From the UHGV virus genome UHGV-2137483: a stretch of 10,960 nt of DNA. The stretch is one strand, 5' to 3'. Of this stretch, positions 5,402 to 10,960 are shown piece after piece. Source of the stretch: a virus. How positions within the stretch are numbered: the stretch's first letter is position 1; every line of letters starts with the position of its first letter. A model generated the notes under the pieces. The model was given only the letters and a program-made list of their open reading frames with translations. It was not told the origin of the DNA and made no database searches. The translations under genes and the position numbers were made by a program.

Positions 5402-5478
5402 TGTGGATTGATCCAGTAATGACCTCAGAATTCCATCTGGATTTGTTCAGAACGCTCGGTTGCCGCCGGGCGTTTTTT
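5402..5478 (+). ncRNA. oop: oop antisense RNA with promoter pO and terminator
   Basis: Terminator at 5453-5478: cgctcgg / ttgccg / ccgggcg then tttttt, which I recall as the lambda oop terminator. Candidate promoter TTGAGT (5367-5372), 17-bp spacer, CATAAT (5390-5395) gives a ~77-nt RNA antisense to the cII 3' end. The 5' end is an estimate. Confidence 0.65.
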
Positions 5479-5716
5479 ATTGGTGAGTCCATCAAGCGCA
5501 TACTTAAAAGCCCTGCTAACTGATGTCTGATGCCATTCCGAAAGCACACAAGACCGAAGCAATAAATCTCCAGTCCGTTCTGCTTATCTTCGATTCATGA
5601 CAGCCAATCATCTTTGCCAGACCGCGCTGGGTAATAGCTGACAGATTGATAAGTAAATCTGTTTCTGCGCGATCAACGTCACGCTGTGATAGTTTGCTGT
5701 AACTTGTTCTTTCCAT
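5425..5716 (-). pseudogene. cII: cII-like transcriptional activator, reading frame broken by a frameshift
   Basis: From ATG 5716-5714 the frame reads MERTSYSKLSQRDVDRAETDLLINLSAITQRGLAKMIGCHESKISRTDWRFIASVLCAFGMASDIS then stops. The +1 frame continues ...EWHQTSVSRAFKYALDGLTNKKRPAATERSEQIQMEF to TGA at 5427-5425; the last ~20 residues equal the lambda cII C-terminus as recalled. Confidence 0.6.
5694..5707 (+). promoter_or_regulatory. candidate CII-binding repeat of a pRE-like promoter (TTGC-N6-TTGT)
   Basis: ttgc tgtaac ttgt lies antisense within the first codons of cII, the position of pRE in lambda. No convincing -10 element was found. Confidence 0.3.
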
Positions 5717-6100: not shown

Positions 6101-6150
6101 AAAATACAATATGTACTTTGCGAATACAAGTAAAAATACACATTGTGCAT
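6101..6150. promoter_or_regulatory. OR operator region with candidate PR (minus strand) and PRM
   Basis: Minus-strand PR candidate: -35 TTGTAT (complement of 6124-6129), 17-bp spacer, -10 TATTTT (complement of 6101-6106). Operator-like element tacaatatgtactt at 6105-6118 and a related tacacattgtgcat at 6137-6150. The same element recurs at OL. Confidence 0.5.
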
Positions 6151-6190
6151 GGATGGTTCCAGTACAGAGCGTAATAATAAGGACATGAAA

Positions 6191-6844
6191 ATGAAATGGT
6201 ATGAACTGGCTAGATCCAGAATGAAAGAGCTCGGCATAACTCAAGAGAAGTTAGCCGAAGAGCTAGGTATGACGCAGGGTGGGATTGGACACTGGTTGCG
6301 CGGATCTCGTCATCCATCTCTTAGTGATATTGGTGTGGTGTTTAAATACCTTGGTATTGATAACATATCATTCAACCACGACGGGACATTTTCACCTGTT
6401 GGCGAATACTCATCGGCCCCAGTTAAAAAACAATATGAGTACCCTGTTTTTTCTCATGTTCAGGCTGGGATGTTCTCTCCAGAACTCAGAACCTTTACCA
6501 AAGGCGATACGGAGAGATTGGTAAGCACAACCAAAAAAGCCAGTGACTCTGCATTCTGGCTTGAGGTTGAAGGTAACTCAATGACCGCACCAACAGGTTC
6601 CAAACCCAGCTTTCCTGACGGGATGTTAATTCTGGTTGACCCTGAGCAAGCTGTTGAGCCCGGCGATTTCTGCATAGCCAGACTTGGTGGTGATGAATTT
6701 ACCTTCAAGAAACTGATCAGGGATAGCGGTCAGGTGTTTCTACAGCCACTAAACCCACAATACCCAATGATCCCATGCAATGAGAGTTGTTCCGTTGTGG
6801 GGAAAGTTATCGCCAGCCAATGGCCTGAAGAGACGTTTGGGTGA
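6191..6844 (+). CDS. cI: CI prophage repressor: non-lambda HTH N-terminal domain, lambda-like S24 autocleavage C-terminal domain
   Basis: C-terminal ~130 residues ([26 protein letters not shown]...[90 protein letters not shown]) match lambda cI as recalled. N-terminal HTH ([23 protein letters not shown]) is different. Start is uncertain: ATG 6191 follows AAGGA by 7 nt; alternatives at 6185, 6149 and TTG 6143. Confidence 0.9.
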
Positions 6845-6883
6845 TGAAACCACTTTTATCTACAATTTACAGGGCGGTAAACA

Positions 6884-7441
6884 TTGGCAAAAATAGATGA
6901 TTATCAGCCAAGCCAAGTAGAAGTTGATAAAGTACTTTATTGTAAAAAAATAGTTAACTTTTCTGGCGTTAAATGGAAACAGAAACCAAGTCGCTCTGAT
7001 ATGTGGCTACAAGCCCATATCATCCCCTTGGATGAGGATTGTATACCTATACAAGGGCTAAAGTTTGAACTGAAATGGAAACCAGATCAGGATTCAGAAC
7101 CTGATGACCCGATTTCTTACCCTAAAATAAATATTATTGCTTTCTATCATAACAAGAGGGTTTTCGCGGTAGATACCTATCACTTTGACAAACACACGAA
7201 TAGTTACAAGGTCGATCATCCGAAGTACCAAGATATCATTTACGGTGCTCACTACCATGTATACTATGAAGAAGCTGGATACTATAGTGATAGAATAGCG
7301 TTTCCAATCGAAGATGACATAAACCCAGATGACCTGGTAGGGTATTGGAATTACTTCTGTAAACATCTGAACATAACTTACTCTGGGAGAATACCTTTAC
7401 CGCTTGAAGATGAGTCGGGGCAAATGGGGTTTGGAATATGA
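6884..7441 (+). CDS. hypothetical protein, gene A of a two-gene cassette in the rexAB slot (185 aa if TTG start)
   Basis: ORF begins 39 nt after the cI stop with no intervening hairpin. First in-frame start is TTG 6884; the first ATG is at codon 40 (7001). No hydrophobic transmembrane stretch is evident. Contains a His/Tyr-rich segment (GAHYHVYYEEAGYY). Visibly AT-rich. No family recognised. Confidence 0.65.
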   Translation: MAKIDDYQPSQVEVDKVLYCKKIVNFSGVKWKQKPSRSDMWLQAHIIPLDEDCIPIQGLKFELKWKPDQDSEPDDPISYPKINIIAFYHNKRVFAVDTYHFDKHTNSYKVDHPKYQDIIYGAHYHVYYEEAGYYSDRIAFPIEDDINPDDLVGYWNYFCKHLNITYSGRIPLPLEDESGQMGFGI

Positions 7442-8190
7442 TGTGCTCAACAGTGATCTCACAACTAGGTTTCGAATGCCATCCAATAGGCAAGACCTTG
7501 AGAATTATCAGTCCATTCACTTACTGTGATGATGGAGAGCATGTCGGTGCCTTTATCCGTGAAGTCAATGGTAGGTATTTAGTTAGTGACAGATGCGATG
7601 CCTTAATGAATATGGAGGCAAGAGGGATCTCGCTTACCAAAAAACGACTTGATGAGATACGACAATTACTGCTTAAAGAAGGCGCAGAACTCAATGCTCG
7701 AGGAGAAATCATTGCTTGGGCAACAGAAAAGGATGTCGGTGCGATTACATCGAACATAATTAGAGCTGGTATACTCGCATCAACTTTGTCGTTAGACTGG
7801 TATCAGCCAGTTCAAGCTGAAAAGTTTGAAAGTATGGTTATTGATTATCTATATCACACAGAGCTTAGAGACGCACTTTCTCTTCGTGAAAACGTATATG
7901 GCTTGAGTGGACATCAAATTACCGTCCCTGTAACAATAAAAACCGACATACCTAAATACGTTTTTACATCAAGCGTGAAACACGGAGGAAGCTGGAATAG
8001 TGCTTACTCATTGCTTGGGAAACTAATTGATCTTAAAGCTTCAAGTGAGGAGTATAACAACAGATTTGTTGTTATAGACAGCGAAGCAATTGGTGATCAA
8101 ATGCAACAACTCTCCTTACTCTTCCATGAATCAAGCCAAGTTCTACCATTCTCCAAAAGAGAGACTTGGGTTAAGAGACTTGCAGCATAA
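7438..8190 (+). CDS. hypothetical protein, gene B of the cassette (250 aa)
   Basis: ATG 7438 overlaps the gene A stop (ATGA, 7438-7441), indicating translational coupling. Long uninterrupted ORF ending TAA 8188-8190, immediately before a strong terminator. No obvious transmembrane segment. No family recognised. Confidence 0.75.
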   Translation: MMCSTVISQLGFECHPIGKTLRIISPFTYCDDGEHVGAFIREVNGRYLVSDRCDALMNMEARGISLTKKRLDEIRQLLLKEGAELNARGEIIAWATEKDVGAITSNIIRAGILASTLSLDWYQPVQAEKFESMVIDYLYHTELRDALSLRENVYGLSGHQITVPVTIKTDIPKYVFTSSVKHGGSWNSAYSLLGKLIDLKASSEEYNNRFVVIDSEAIGDQMQQLSLLFHESSQVLPFSKRETWVKRLAA

Positions 8191-8193
8191 TAC

Positions 8194-8220
8194 AACCCGG
8201 CCTCAGCGCCGGGTTTTCTT
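8194..8220 (+). terminator. intrinsic terminator ending the cI-cassette transcript (tImm-like)
   Basis: aacccggc (8194-8201) / loop ctcagc / gccgggtt (8208-8215), followed by a T-rich tail ttttcttt. Confidence 0.65.
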
Positions 8221-8408
8221 TGCCTCACGTTCGCCCACCTAAAAACACATAACCAATTATATTTATTGAAAAATAAATAGATGCAACCCACTAAACCACG
8301 CAATTCTGATCTCTCCTTACATCGCCGAGGCAATACATCCACGCTAAAAAACAACACTATTAAATACAAAGCGTTATAAAAAACCACGCCAACTTACAAC
8401 AAATTGTA

Positions 8409-8437
8409 TTGATCTTGTAAAGTACATATCGTACTAT
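8409..8437 (+). promoter_or_regulatory. pL candidate with OL operator
   Basis: -35 TTGATC (8409-8414), 17-bp spacer, -10 TACTAT (8432-8437). Palindromic operator AGTACatatcGTACT at 8421-8435 matches the OR element with the same spacing to the -35. Confidence 0.5.
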
Positions 8438-8482
8438 TTAACCGTCAGCAGGACGCTGGAAGCCAAATGGAACAGACTGGCA

Positions 8483-8528
8483 GGCTCTTTAAACAACGTC
8501 GACTCTCGACTACGTGGCTGAAAAGCCA
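8483..8528 (+). promoter_or_regulatory. nutL (boxA plus boxB hairpin)
   Basis: GGCTCTTT (8483-8490), 24 nt, then tggc-tgaaaa-gcca hairpin (8515-8528). Same architecture and spacer landmarks (AACAACG, CTACG) as nutR. Confidence 0.55.
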
Positions 8529-8626
8529 GATCACCCAACCACATAAGCTGTGGGATGCAATGCCGAAGCAACCGTCTCAGGAGGAGCTTCGAGATTGCAT
8601 CGCCAAAGTTTATTCGGGAGGAATCC

Positions 8627-8899
8627 ATGTCCAGAAAAACAGAATTTAAAGGCACCGCAGCTTCTCGCCGTAGAGCTCGTCGCGCAAATCTGCAAAGTCA
8701 GGAGGCGATCAGCTCCGACAAGCTACACAGGCCAACCCCTTCACGAGTGGTCTTGCAATGCAAGCTCAAACCAGCAATGAGAGCAGAAGTGATAACTCTG
8801 ACAACGTTGACCAGAAAATATGAAGGTTCAACTTGTCTTCCGAACGTAGCTCTTTACGCGGCAGGCTACCGGAAATCAAAACAACTGACGGCGAGATGA
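8627..8899 (+). CDS. N: N-like transcription antiterminator (P22 gene-24 type), 90 aa
   Basis: ATG 8627 preceded by GGAGG (8617-8621). N-terminal arginine-rich motif GTAASRRRARRA; C-terminus ...VALYAAGYRKSKQLTAR resembles P22 gene 24 as recalled. The ORF-track upstream extension from 8555 is rejected. Confidence 0.75.
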   Translation: MSRKTEFKGTAASRRRARRANLQSQEAISSDKLHRPTPSRVVLQCKLKPAMRAEVITLTTLTRKYEGSTCLPNVALYAAGYRKSKQLTAR

Positions 8900-8915
8900 T
8901 AAATTCATTTGCTAA

Positions 8916-9532
8916 TTACTTGTTTTTGCCATGCTTATCCTGAGCGATAAGTTCATCCATAAGGCTGTCTGCCTTCCCGGCAAACCTAATGTAGCACTCA
9001 TGTCTATAGCTTTCAGGGATAACGAAACGGTCGGTATCAGGATATCCAACAGCAGGAGGCCTTCGAACGAGGAGTCCTTTTTTGAGCAATGAAATTGATT
9101 CATGAGNNNNNNNNNNNNNNNNNNNNNNNNNNATTCATGAGCGCCCTTTTCCGTTTGTAGCTGGTTATTAGCGGCTACAGCGAATGCCAAATACGCTCTT
9201 TCTCCAAGAGTTAACGAATCAAACAAATCTTGCACATATTTTTCTTCTTTAGATTTGCGCTTCTGAGCAGCGAATACCTCAATTCTTTCAGTCACAGCGT
9301 GATAAGCGGAATTAACAACGCCGTTAAGCACATAGCTAACGCAAAACAACAGGATGTAATACATCCAGTAATGAGGAAGGATTTCTGGACTATGCAGGTT
9401 TATCCATTCTTTTACGCTTACCGGCATAACAATAATCAATATGATCAGGATGATTAGCATATGAATCAACTGTTTAAGTGTCATTCCTTGCAGGAAAAAA
9501 TGCATTAGTTCCTGCCACCATGAGTTGTTCAT
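8916..9532 (-). CDS. sieB: superinfection exclusion protein SieB-like membrane protein, interrupted by an assembly gap
   Basis: N-terminal part MNNSWWQELMHFFLQGMTLKQLIHMLIILIILIIVMPVSV... is hydrophobic. The C-terminal part is in a different frame from the ORF-track call and reads ...HESISLLKKGLLVRRPPAVGYPDTDRFVIPESYRHECYIRFAGKADSLMDELIAQDKHGKNK to TAA 8918-8916. Convergent with N, as lambda sieB. Confidence 0.65.
9107..9132. other. assembly gap (26 N), probably artefactual
   Basis: Run of N. The 9 bases attcatgag occur on both flanks (9098-9106 and 9133-9141). Confidence 0.95.
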
Positions 9533-9675
9533 CGGCGTTTCTCTTTTGCTCTCTGTAGGGGTGAATAGAGTTTATCCGATTTCTCGTTGTAGGGGTACAC
9601 GAGAACCACCGAGCCTGATGTGGTTAAAAGACAGGCACAATCTTTACTACCGCAATCCACTATTTAAGGTGATAT

Positions 9676-9762
9676 ATGGAAGAAGAATTTGAAGAGTTCG
9701 AAGAGCATCCTCAAGATGTGATGGAACAATACCAGGACTATCCGTATGACTACGACTATTGA
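9676..9762 (+). CDS. small acidic ORF (28 aa) at the position of lambda orf28
   Basis: ATG 9676 preceded by AAGGTGA. Translation MEEEFEEFEEHPQDVMEQYQDYPYDYDY. Same length and position (overlapping the ral start) as lambda orf28 as recalled; sequence identity not verified. Confidence 0.45.
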   Translation: MEEEFEEFEEHPQDVMEQYQDYPYDYDY

Positions 9763-9946
9763 TACAAATCAATGGTGTGGACAATTCAAACGATGCAATG
9801 GATGCAAGCTGCAATCGGAATGCATGGTTAAGCCTGAAGAAATGTTTCCTGTAATGGAAGATGGGAAATATGTCGATAAATGGGCAATACGAACGACGGC
9901 AATGATTGCCAGAGAACTTGGTAAACAGAACAACAAAGCTGCCTGA
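9746..9946 (+). CDS. ral: restriction alleviation protein Ral
   Basis: 66-aa translation MTTTIDTNQWCGQFKRCNGCKLQSECMVKPEEMFPVMEDGKYVDKWAIRTTAMIARELGKQNNKAA matches lambda Ral as recalled. Confidence 0.85.
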   Translation: MTTTIDTNQWCGQFKRCNGCKLQSECMVKPEEMFPVMEDGKYVDKWAIRTTAMIARELGKQNNKAA

Positions 9947-10082
9947 TAGTGGCCTTTATTTTTGGCATAAATAACAGAATAAACACTGCACTGTGTATTC
10001 ATTCCAACGAGTGAATACACGGAGCAATGTCGCTCGTAACTAAACAGGAGCCGACTTGTTCTGATTATTGGAAATCTTCTTT

Positions 10083-10108
10083 GCCCTCCAGTGTGAGGGC
10101 GATTTTTT
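10083..10108 (+). terminator. intrinsic terminator between ral and ea10
   Basis: gccctc (10083-10088) / loop cagtgt / gagggc (10095-10100), then gatttttt. Confidence 0.55.
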
Positions 10109-10128
10109 ATCTATGAGGATATGAATAG

Positions 10129-10497
10129 ATGTCAAACATCAAAAAATACATCATTGATTACGACTGGAAAGCATCAATAGAAATTGAAATTGACCATGAC
10201 GTAATGACAGAGGAAAAACTTCACCAGATTAATAATTTCTGGTCAGACTCTGAATACCGACTCAATAAACACGGCTCTGTATTAAATGCTGTATTAATCA
10301 TGCTGGCGCAACATGCTCTGCTTATAGCAATTTCAAGCGACTTAAATGCATATGGTGTTGTGTGTGAGTTCGACTGGAATGATGGAAATGGTCAGGAAGG
10401 ATGGCCTCCAATGGATGGTAGTGAAGGAATAAGAATTACCGATATCGATACATCAGGAATATTTGATTCAGATGATATGACTATCAAGGCCGCCTGA
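10129..10497 (+). CDS. ea10: early protein at the position and length of lambda Ea10 (122 aa, acidic C-terminus)
   Basis: ATG 10129 preceded by GAGGA. 369-nt ORF between ral and cIII, the size and place of lambda ea10 as recalled. Sequence identity to Ea10 not verified. Confidence 0.55.
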   Translation: MSNIKKYIIDYDWKASIEIEIDHDVMTEEKLHQINNFWSDSEYRLNKHGSVLNAVLIMLAQHALLIAISSDLNAYGVVCEFDWNDGNGQEGWPPMDGSEGIRITDIDTSGIFDSDDMTIKAA

Positions 10498-10569
10498 GCG
10501 CGGCGTTACCGCATACCAATTACGCTTCACTCGAGGCGTTTTTCGTTATGTATAAATAAGGAGCACACC

Positions 10570-10734
10570 ATGCAATATGCCATTGCAGGGTGGCCTGTTG
10601 CTGGCTGCCCTTCCGAATCTTTACTTGAACGAATCACCCGTAAATTACGTGACGGATGGAAACGCCTTATCGACATACTTAATCAGCCAGGAGTCCCAAA
10701 AAATGGATCAAACAATTATGGCTATCCAGACTAA
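10570..10734 (+). CDS. cIII: CIII (FtsH inhibitor, protects CII)
   Basis: Below the ORF-track cutoff. ATG 10570 preceded by AAGGAG. Translation [54 protein letters not shown] matches lambda CIII as recalled. Confidence 0.9.
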   Translation: MQYAIAGWPVAGCPSESLLERITRKLRDGWKRLIDILNQPGVPKNGSNNYGYPD

Positions 10735-10846
10735 ATTCACTATCGCCACTTTTATTGGCGATGAAAAGATGTTTCGTGAGGCCGTCGACGCTTATAAAAA
10801 ATGGATATTAATACTGAAACTGAGATCAAGCAAAAGCATTCACTAA
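10703..10846 (+). CDS. kil: Kil (host cell-division inhibitor)
   Basis: 47-aa translation [47 protein letters not shown] matches lambda Kil as recalled. Overlaps the cIII 3' end in another frame, as in lambda. Confidence 0.85.
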
Positions 10847-10921
10847 CCCCCTTTCCTGTTTTCCTAATCAGCCTGGCATTTCGCGGGCGATATTTTCACA
10901 GCCATTTTCAGGAGTTCAGCC

Positions 10922-10960
10922 ATGAACGCTTATTACATTCAGGATCGTCTTGAGGCTCAG
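10922..10960 (+). CDS. gam: Gam (RecBCD inhibitor), first 13 codons only; continues beyond the window
   Basis: ATG 10922 preceded by AGGAG. Translation [13 protein letters not shown] matches the N-terminus of the short form of lambda Gam as recalled. Confidence 0.75.

Follow-up and report, generated by a model that had tools for sequence, protein, structure and literature searches.

A two-gene accessory cassette in the cI-to-tImm slot of a lambdoid Escherichia coli prophage and its possible role in phage defence

The 10,960 nucleotides analysed here (the whole stretch, hereafter the window) belong to the virus genome UHGV-2137483 and correspond to the early region of a lambdoid prophage of Escherichia coli. 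Two overlapping genes, designated A and B, lie between the cI-type repressor gene and an equivalent of the lambda terminator tImm. Alignments with other prophages indicate that positions 6878-8225 are a self-contained, horizontally exchanged two-gene accessory cassette in the cI-to-tImm slot. The best explanation of the whole, which we hold with moderate confidence, is that this exchanged cassette would be co-expressed with cI and act in anti-phage defence or superinfection exclusion, with B as the effector and A as the sensor. It should be emphasized that this kind of cassette is well known and that computational predictions had already named both proteins as candidates for defence. An initial annotation had described 6845-8225 as an AT-rich island and as a moron acquired from a source of lower guanine plus cytosine (GC) content.

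The first gene of the putative cassette operon is cI (6149..6844, plus strand). Its product matches the Pfam families Peptidase_S24 (E 1e-28) and HTH_3 (E 2e-10), is named LexA family protein (WP_001302016.1) by the Prokaryotic Genome Annotation Pipeline (PGAP) and, in its C-terminal half, shares 93% identity with lambda CI up to the stop. A spacer of 39 nt follows (6845..6883, plus strand), with a weak Shine-Dalgarno-like AGGGCGG at 6871-6877 and, two codons ahead of gene A, an in-frame TAA at 6878-6880. Gene A (6884..7441, plus strand; 185 aa, WP_001062368.1) starts with TTG, the start also used by PGAP, and its stop overlaps the ATG of gene B (7438..8190, plus strand; 250 aa, WP_000968518.1) in the sequence ATGA. 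The right edge of the module is an intrinsic terminator, the tImm equivalent (8194..8225, plus strand), which was detected by a terminator scan and consists of a stem of 8 bp, 6 of them G-C pairs, and of TTCTTTGCCT after it. Its 32 nt are 100% identical to lambda 35795-35826, the tImm site at the end of rexB. The gene model first proposed (cI stop at 6844, both genes at the positions above, hairpin and T-run at 8194-8225) was correct.

The alignments also bear out the earlier claim that the cassette is a discrete unit between the cI stop and tImm. The alignment with lambda breaks off at 6845 and starts again at 8194, and that with prophages of Yersinia and of further Enterobacteriaceae is restricted to 6878/6880-8224/8225, with about 70% identity and unrelated flanks. 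The left edge of the mobile module is located at about 6878-6880, and the limits seen in other genera suggest that it travels from just before the start codon to the end of the terminator. This terminator is present in the aligned modules of other genera and travels with the genes. Another E. coli locus (L003) associates the same cI allele (94.6% identical through 6927) with a different cassette allele, whose A (180 aa) and B (258 aa) proteins share 40% and 51% identity with those of the window. The breakpoints of this second allele are not the module edges but lie inside the 5' end of A (6927; 5514 in L003) and the 3' end of B (8056; 6643 in L003). It is the more widespread of the two alleles, with 4213 blocks of the collection in the index.

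The slot itself holds very different cargoes. Its flanks (cI on one side, tImm, pL and N on the other) are conserved with lambda, HK542, mEp234 and phage 2851, whereas its content varies: rexAB in lambda, SfI and E26, hicAB together with one hypothetical gene in mEp234, a pair of unrelated hypothetical genes in HK542 and something different again in phage 2851. The interval between cI and N, which houses rexAB and bstA, had already been described as a hotspot of mosaic diversity (PMC8585504).

Gene A is found directly upstream of B, on the same strand, in all 27 loci retrieved, which represent 10 lineages. In each of these loci, a gene encoding a LexA-like repressor with helix-turn-helix (HTH) and S24 domains is located upstream on the same strand. 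At least seven different repressor types are concerned, and both the repressor and the Cro types are of several unrelated kinds. The hosts are E. coli, Salmonella-type Enterobacteriaceae, Yersinia, Xenorhabdus, Providencia, Pantoea, Izhakiella, Thorsellia and Aeromonas. A genome scan with B returned only 8 loci, and neither this species-wide scan nor an exhaustive search with A found a non-prophage context for the family. The two genes overlap by 4 nt (ATGA) in all lineages except for the second E. coli allele, in which the overlap reaches 13 nt. Gene A diverges faster than gene B, their respective identities being 68 versus 78%, 42 versus 52% and 38 versus 55%. Within E. coli, matches to the cassette occur in 277 of 5426 complete genomes, and about 5% carry the present allele. 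The stretch 6845-8225 is 100% identical in at least 239 complete genomes, including those of the type strain ATCC 11775, Nissle 1917 and NU14, and likewise in the phages ev017, ev207, PhiR57_1 and PhiR63_2.

The composition of the cassette was the main argument of the initial annotation. The GC content of 6845-8225 is 40.0% (38.2% for A and 40.6% for B), compared with 46.1% for cI, 49.5% for N, 50.1% for O and P together, 45.0% for the whole window and 45.7% for the rest of it. The difference is significant relative to cI (p=0.008), N (p=0.004), O and P (p=4e-8) and the rest of the window (p=7e-5). Only 2.3% of all 1381-bp segments have a GC content equal to or below that of the cassette, the minimum being reached by the segment that starts at 7059. 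An AT-rich stretch was therefore correctly perceived, but the contrast is modest and not unique to the cassette. Indeed, the right flank (8226-10960) has a GC content of 42.3%, which does not differ from that of the cassette (p=0.17), and its part 8900-10960, carrying sieB, ral and DUF2528, has 41.3% (p=0.47). Furthermore, likelihood-ratio segmentation of the window by GC content places change points at 2443 and 4905 only and gives the cassette no segment of its own, so that the immunity and early-left regions form one 42% segment.

The preference for A/T-ending codons noticed by eye is real when compared with cI and N, since the GC content at third codon positions (GC3) is 0.36 in A and 0.34 in B as against 0.44 in both of these genes, but it equals that of ral (0.37) and of the DUF2528 gene (0.35). 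The codon adaptation index, calculated with the Sharp-Li E. coli weights, is the lowest of the window for B (0.172), whereas that of A (0.239) equals that of cI (0.246; N has 0.222). The low GC content of A is in part imposed at the amino-acid level, as its GC content at second codon positions is 0.29 and D, I, Y and K abound in its product. The long A/T runs that had been mentioned are not enriched: there are 3.6 per kb in the cassette versus 4.2 and 5.9 per kb in the flanks.

Had the cassette been inserted recently from a donor of lower GC content, this would explain why it lies 6-10 GC points under cI, N, O and P and has the lowest GC3 of the window's coding genes compared. Several observations nevertheless make this origin very improbable. 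The GC content of the cassette follows that of each host, from 32.6% in Thorsellia, through 36-41% in Xenorhabdus, Yersinia and Providencia and 40-46% in E. coli and Pantoea, to 51% in Aeromonas (flanks 58%), i.e., between 33 and 51% overall. It lies 2.2-7.3 points below that of its own ±3 kb flanks in all of the 10 lineages. Synonymous sites are saturated between lineages (proportion of synonymous differences, pS, 0.71-0.89) for a nonsynonymous counterpart (pN) of 0.13-0.44; both genes are under purifying selection. The neighbours ral, DUF2528 and sieB are equally AT-rich, segmentation does not split off the cassette and the codon adaptation of A is that of cI. The recent low-GC donor was rejected because of the host-tracking GC content and the saturated synonymous sites. 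The module has therefore long resided at repressor loci, with an AT bias that has been maintained. Its mild AT-richness would be the persistent bias typical of accessory cargo and not the trace of a particular donor. Taken alone, the composition is ordinary, the accessory genes of the lambdoid early-left region being generally AT-rich.

According to the definition reportedly given by Hendrix and colleagues, a moron is an independent accessory transcription unit in a phage genome. The cassette resembles one in several respects: it is extra DNA that is exchanged as a unit and lies between genes adjoining each other in related phages, it ends with a terminator and its composition is unlike that of cI and N (p<0.01), although not unlike that of the right-hand accessory genes (p=0.17-0.47). 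However, no credible promoter of its own was found, so that the term moron applies in part only. In the 39-nt gap between cI and A, the search detected neither a credible promoter nor a terminator. The single promoter-like match (6866-6894) overlaps the start codon of A, and the number of matches is no higher than in shuffled sequence. In lambda lysogens, cI, rexA and rexB are transcribed from the repressor promoters. Because of this knowledge and of the short gap lacking a terminator or credible promoter, A and B are probably co-transcribed with cI in the lysogen, transcription starting at the maintenance promoter and ending at tImm.

The initial annotation had also pointed out that gene A has no in-frame ATG before codon 40 and would need a TTG start. 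Both statements hold. The TTG at 6884 is the first possible start after the TAA at 6878-6880, and no further ATG, GTG or TTG occurs in frame until the ATG of codon 40. A start at this codon would remove 39 residues, among which M1, A2, K3, D6, P9, Q11, V14, D15, L18, K22, W31 and K34 are invariant in 18 homologues, including the N-terminal pattern M-A-K..D..P.Q..VD. Furthermore, 9 of the 10 lineages use TTG or GTG: TTG in the present allele and in Aeromonas, GTG in the second E. coli allele, Yersinia, Xenorhabdus, other Enterobacteriaceae, Izhakiella, Providencia and Pantoea. Thorsellia alone has ATG. This conservation across lineages suggests that the weak start is a selected feature.

The A protein belongs to a small family, as an exhaustive search among 1.84 billion sequences retrieved 20 cluster representatives at E<=1e-3. 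It matches PHROG 2017 (E 6e-67) and, under the gathering score, Pfam DUF6978 (E 2e-4). Its AlphaFold2 (AF2) model is beta-rich, with a predicted local distance difference test score (pLDDT) of 82 and a predicted template modelling score of 0.81; structural comparison of this model gave no informative neighbour. The protein carries an invariant motif at residues 121-129, G121-x-H123-x-H125-x-Y-Y-E129. Both A and B are soluble, acidic proteins, in which a hydropathy scan found no transmembrane or hydrophobic segment (maximum 19-residue Kyte-Doolittle mean of 0.45 for A and 1.19 for B).

The B protein, which matches PHROG 1960 (E 2e-106), is modelled by AF2 as two domains (pLDDT 83). The N-terminal one is DUF1828 (Pfam E 5e-8), whose fold is like that of type III secretion chaperones and YbjN, and it includes an invariant acidic cluster (D31, D32, E34, D51, D54 and E60). 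The published domain table for the identical protein WP_000968518.1 gives DUF1828 at residues 25-114 (probability 99.5) and DUF1829, of the Pfam clan PDDEXK, at residues 155-241 (98.8) (PMC13092281 Table S5). The C-terminal domain of the model displays the alpha-beta-beta-beta-alpha-beta core of the PD-(D/E)xK superfamily. This domain of B therefore has a PD-(D/E)xK restriction-endonuclease-like fold. Its invariant polar residues are S157, H159, K173, T177, D198, R209, D214 and Q224; there is no invariant acidic residue at the start of strand 2 or in strand 3, and D198 is located in the following helix. Profile searches of the Protein Data Bank (PDB) with A and B gave nothing below E 0.2, NCBIfam had zero matches for either protein and Pfam had zero for the isolated C-terminal half of B. 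Full-text literature searches found no functional study on DUF1828, DUF6978 or PDC-M24, a candidate defence system considered below.

Two coupled genes with an overlapping stop and start and a weak first start could also be a toxin-antitoxin or addiction module, in which one protein neutralises the other. Such a module would mainly stabilise the prophage or the immunity region and would take no direct part in defence against phages. The presence of the hicAB pair in the same slot of mEp234 is in line with this proposal, as is the antitoxin-like partner role proposed for a DUF1829-containing protein in HipAD. On the other hand, A and B match no toxin or antitoxin family in Pfam, NCBIfam or PADLOC, and A, a beta protein of 185 aa, is large for an antitoxin and does not have a DNA-binding antitoxin fold. 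We consider such a module unlikely; besides, many prophage pairs of this type defend against phages anyway, so that it overlaps with the explanation by defence.

The link of A and B with defence comes from several directions. In PADLOC-DB, their only matches are PDC-M24A (by A) and PDC-M24B (by B), i.e., the two parts of one candidate system; these matches were judged by E value and not by the PADLOC score thresholds. The match of B is extensive (E 4.7e-10, residues 2-249 against 4-254 of 256) and is shared by 34 of 34 family members (best E 8e-12). That of A (E 4.8e-4) is limited to residues 104-163, and remote members of its family match PDC-M24A models only. PDC systems were predicted from their embedding in type I restriction-modification, BREX and DISARM loci, the cassette being recorded as FAM_00129>>FAM_00065 in the table of the preprint (Payne et al. 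2024, 10.1101/2024.01.29.577857). Independently of PADLOC, DefensePredictor lists WP_001062368.1 and WP_000968518.1 as 'Predicted novel defense gene' in Tables S5 and S10, with mean log-odds of 4.9 and 5.6, and both are absent from its table of tested units (PMC13092281).

Strain Nissle 1917 has a phenotype to which the cassette could be related. The cassette corresponds there to EcN_1292/1291 of prophage 3, and an additional unidentified factor of this prophage was inferred to lie behind the resistance of the strain to lambda and Stx phages (PMC5987069).

The strict linkage to a repressor gene in every lineage could mean that the cassette serves the prophage life cycle (the lysis-lysogeny switch or induction), or else host fitness or virulence, and not exclusion. 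A role in tuning the switch or induction has been suggested for lambda RexAB. The cassette is also common in extra-intestinal pathogenic and commensal E. coli, as reflected by the 277 of 5426 complete genomes, and bstA, which occupies the same position, was first tied to virulence phenotypes (PMC8585504). However, the slot swaps unrelated cargo while the switch genes stay, which argues against a core regulatory function. Moreover, the remote homologues in PDC-M24 are embedded in restriction-modification, BREX and DISARM loci, far from a phage switch, and a nuclease-type fold would be unusual in a switch modulator. A role of this kind thus appears improbable.

According to the explanation by defence, A and B would act against superinfecting phages as a defence or exclusion system. 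B would be the effector or the subunit engaging nucleic acids, as suggested by its PDDEXK fold, with the chaperone-like DUF1828 exerting control over the PDDEXK-fold domain. As the faster-evolving protein, translated from a weak start, A would have the role of sensor or regulatory partner; kept scarce by this start, it could be engaged by an infecting phage, and this engagement would release the activity of B. A more precise version is tentative and, in our opinion, rather doubtful as a whole. It supposes a repressor-linked defence or abortive-infection system in which A senses the phage, B is a non-canonical PDDEXK effector gated by its chaperone-like domain, the weak start of A sets the silencing stoichiometry and the pair is the Nissle prophage-3 factor against lambda and Stx phages.

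Several points weigh against the explanation by defence. Both defence predictions are computational only, and the phenotype of A-B is purely predicted. The match of A with PDC-M24A is weak and partial, with 5 of 18 members matching PDLC04536 and 3 of 18 matching PDLC04538 (E<0.01). Conservation analysis did not reveal the canonical D...(D/E)xK catalytic residues in B, whose C-terminal domain may consequently bind DNA instead of cutting it. DNA binding without cutting was proposed for the DUF1829 protein of HipAD, and the same possibility arises for B. A link with this validated defence protein, DS-6B/HipAD, was rejected, as profile comparison with B gave a probability of 0.3%, i.e., no detectable similarity. 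The co-transcription of cI, A and B was inferred from the 39-nt gap and from lambda, and in other lineages the corresponding gap measures 100-800 nt, which leaves room for a promoter. Finally, A-B has no membrane component, which excludes the mechanism of RexAB.

If A and B are indeed a defence system, they would represent a new protein architecture among the defences found at the cI-rexAB slot, the best-studied phage locus. A function would also be assigned for the first time to DUF1828, and likewise to a beta-rich family of about 20 sequence clusters in 1.8 billion. Furthermore, the two genes would be a concrete candidate for the unexplained part of the resistance of Nissle 1917 to lambda and Shiga-toxin phages.

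The cassette is surrounded by the usual genes of a lambdoid early region. On the minus strand, the order is porin, Q (quuD), rusA, ninX/E, dam, ninB, ren, P, O, cII and cro. On the plus strand, cro is followed by cI, A, B, the terminator, N, ral, DUF2528 and the start of cIII, with sieB on the minus strand between N and ral. In both ATCC 11775 and Nissle 1917, PGAP calls the product of the antiterminator gene N (8627-8899; Pfam N_peptide, E 1e-32) no more than a 'hypothetical protein', and an open reading frame of 60 aa (8467-8649) overlapping the nutL region is annotated as well. An Rfam scan of the window detected only Lambda_thermo, the cIII thermoregulator RNA, above the gathering score (10557-10615, 88.5 bits), and gave no match within the cassette.

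Two genes of the window seem altered. In sieB (minus strand), 26 N at 9107-9132 are located within 9098-9141, with a 9-bp direct duplication, ATTCATGAG, on either side, while ATCC 11775 has at this site a single copy of the 9-bp sequence and no insert. The arrangement resembles the insertion, masked or collapsed, of an insertion sequence that duplicated 9 bp of its target, or else a scaffold gap; in either case sieB would be disrupted. In cII (minus strand), 5 bp (TCCGA, 5516-5520) are missing from the window but present in the otherwise identical cII of ATCC 11775 (locus L001) and in L003. The deletion leads to a TAG stop at 5516-5518 and to a CII of 66 residues instead of 98. Given this truncated CII, the prophage of the window strain may be impaired in establishing lysogeny.

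In Nissle 1917 (locus L032), PGAP annotates a full-length cII of 297 nt, whose protein has the same accession as in L001 (WP_000442609.1); the window therefore originates from a different strain. The qPCR primer 1294_fwd of the Nissle paper (PMC5987069), TCCGATTAGCAGGGCTTT, matches the cII of L001 (window 5420-5716) across the deletion site. The gene cloned in that paper under the name 'phage repressor pr' (EcN_1294) is therefore of the CII family and is not the cI repressor, which is EcN_1293. In Nissle 1917, a frameshifted ISEc52 transposase and a fragment of an integrase adjacent to icd take the place of the ral-to-int arm beyond sieB (L032 6249-7854), so that the immunity region with its cassette is retained in a decayed prophage.

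As regards known systems, the DUF1829 domain of B belongs to the Pfam clan PDDEXK and recalls PD-(D/E)xK effectors with an N-terminal regulatory domain, such as Can2/Card1, NucS and SfsA. Nevertheless, the N-terminal domain of B is chaperone/YbjN-like and not a CARF domain. In addition, B has neither a recognisable canonical catalytic D and (D/E)xK nor a PDB relative detectable by sequence. The resemblance with PDC-M24 is one of both parts and organisation, as A matches only PDC-M24A and B only PDC-M24B and as the genes are adjacent, co-oriented and in the A-then-B order. However, the similarity is remote and covers only the C-terminal third of A (60 residues). Moreover, PDC-M24 was defined from restriction-modification, BREX and DISARM loci, whereas the A-B family was found only behind prophage repressors. 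PDC-M24 is itself a 'guilt-by-embedding' candidate, whose function is only predicted.

With lambda rexA-rexB, the cassette shares the slot and strand between cI and tImm, the arrangement of two genes directly after cI, the identical terminator and, presumably, expression in the lysogen from the repressor promoters. The proteins are nonetheless unrelated: tblastn of A and B against lambda 34900-38300 was empty, and no RexA or RexB match was obtained in Pfam or PADLOC. Furthermore, A and B have no membrane segment, while RexB was reported to be a membrane ion channel (PMC8585504). Lacking both homology and a membrane protein, A-B cannot act by the mechanism of RexAB. BstA from the Salmonella prophage BTP1 differs in being a single protein, and A and B match no PADLOC family but PDC-M24. 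Like the A-B pair, however, BstA is encoded directly downstream of a prophage repressor gene, in a synteny conserved across genera (PMC8585504).

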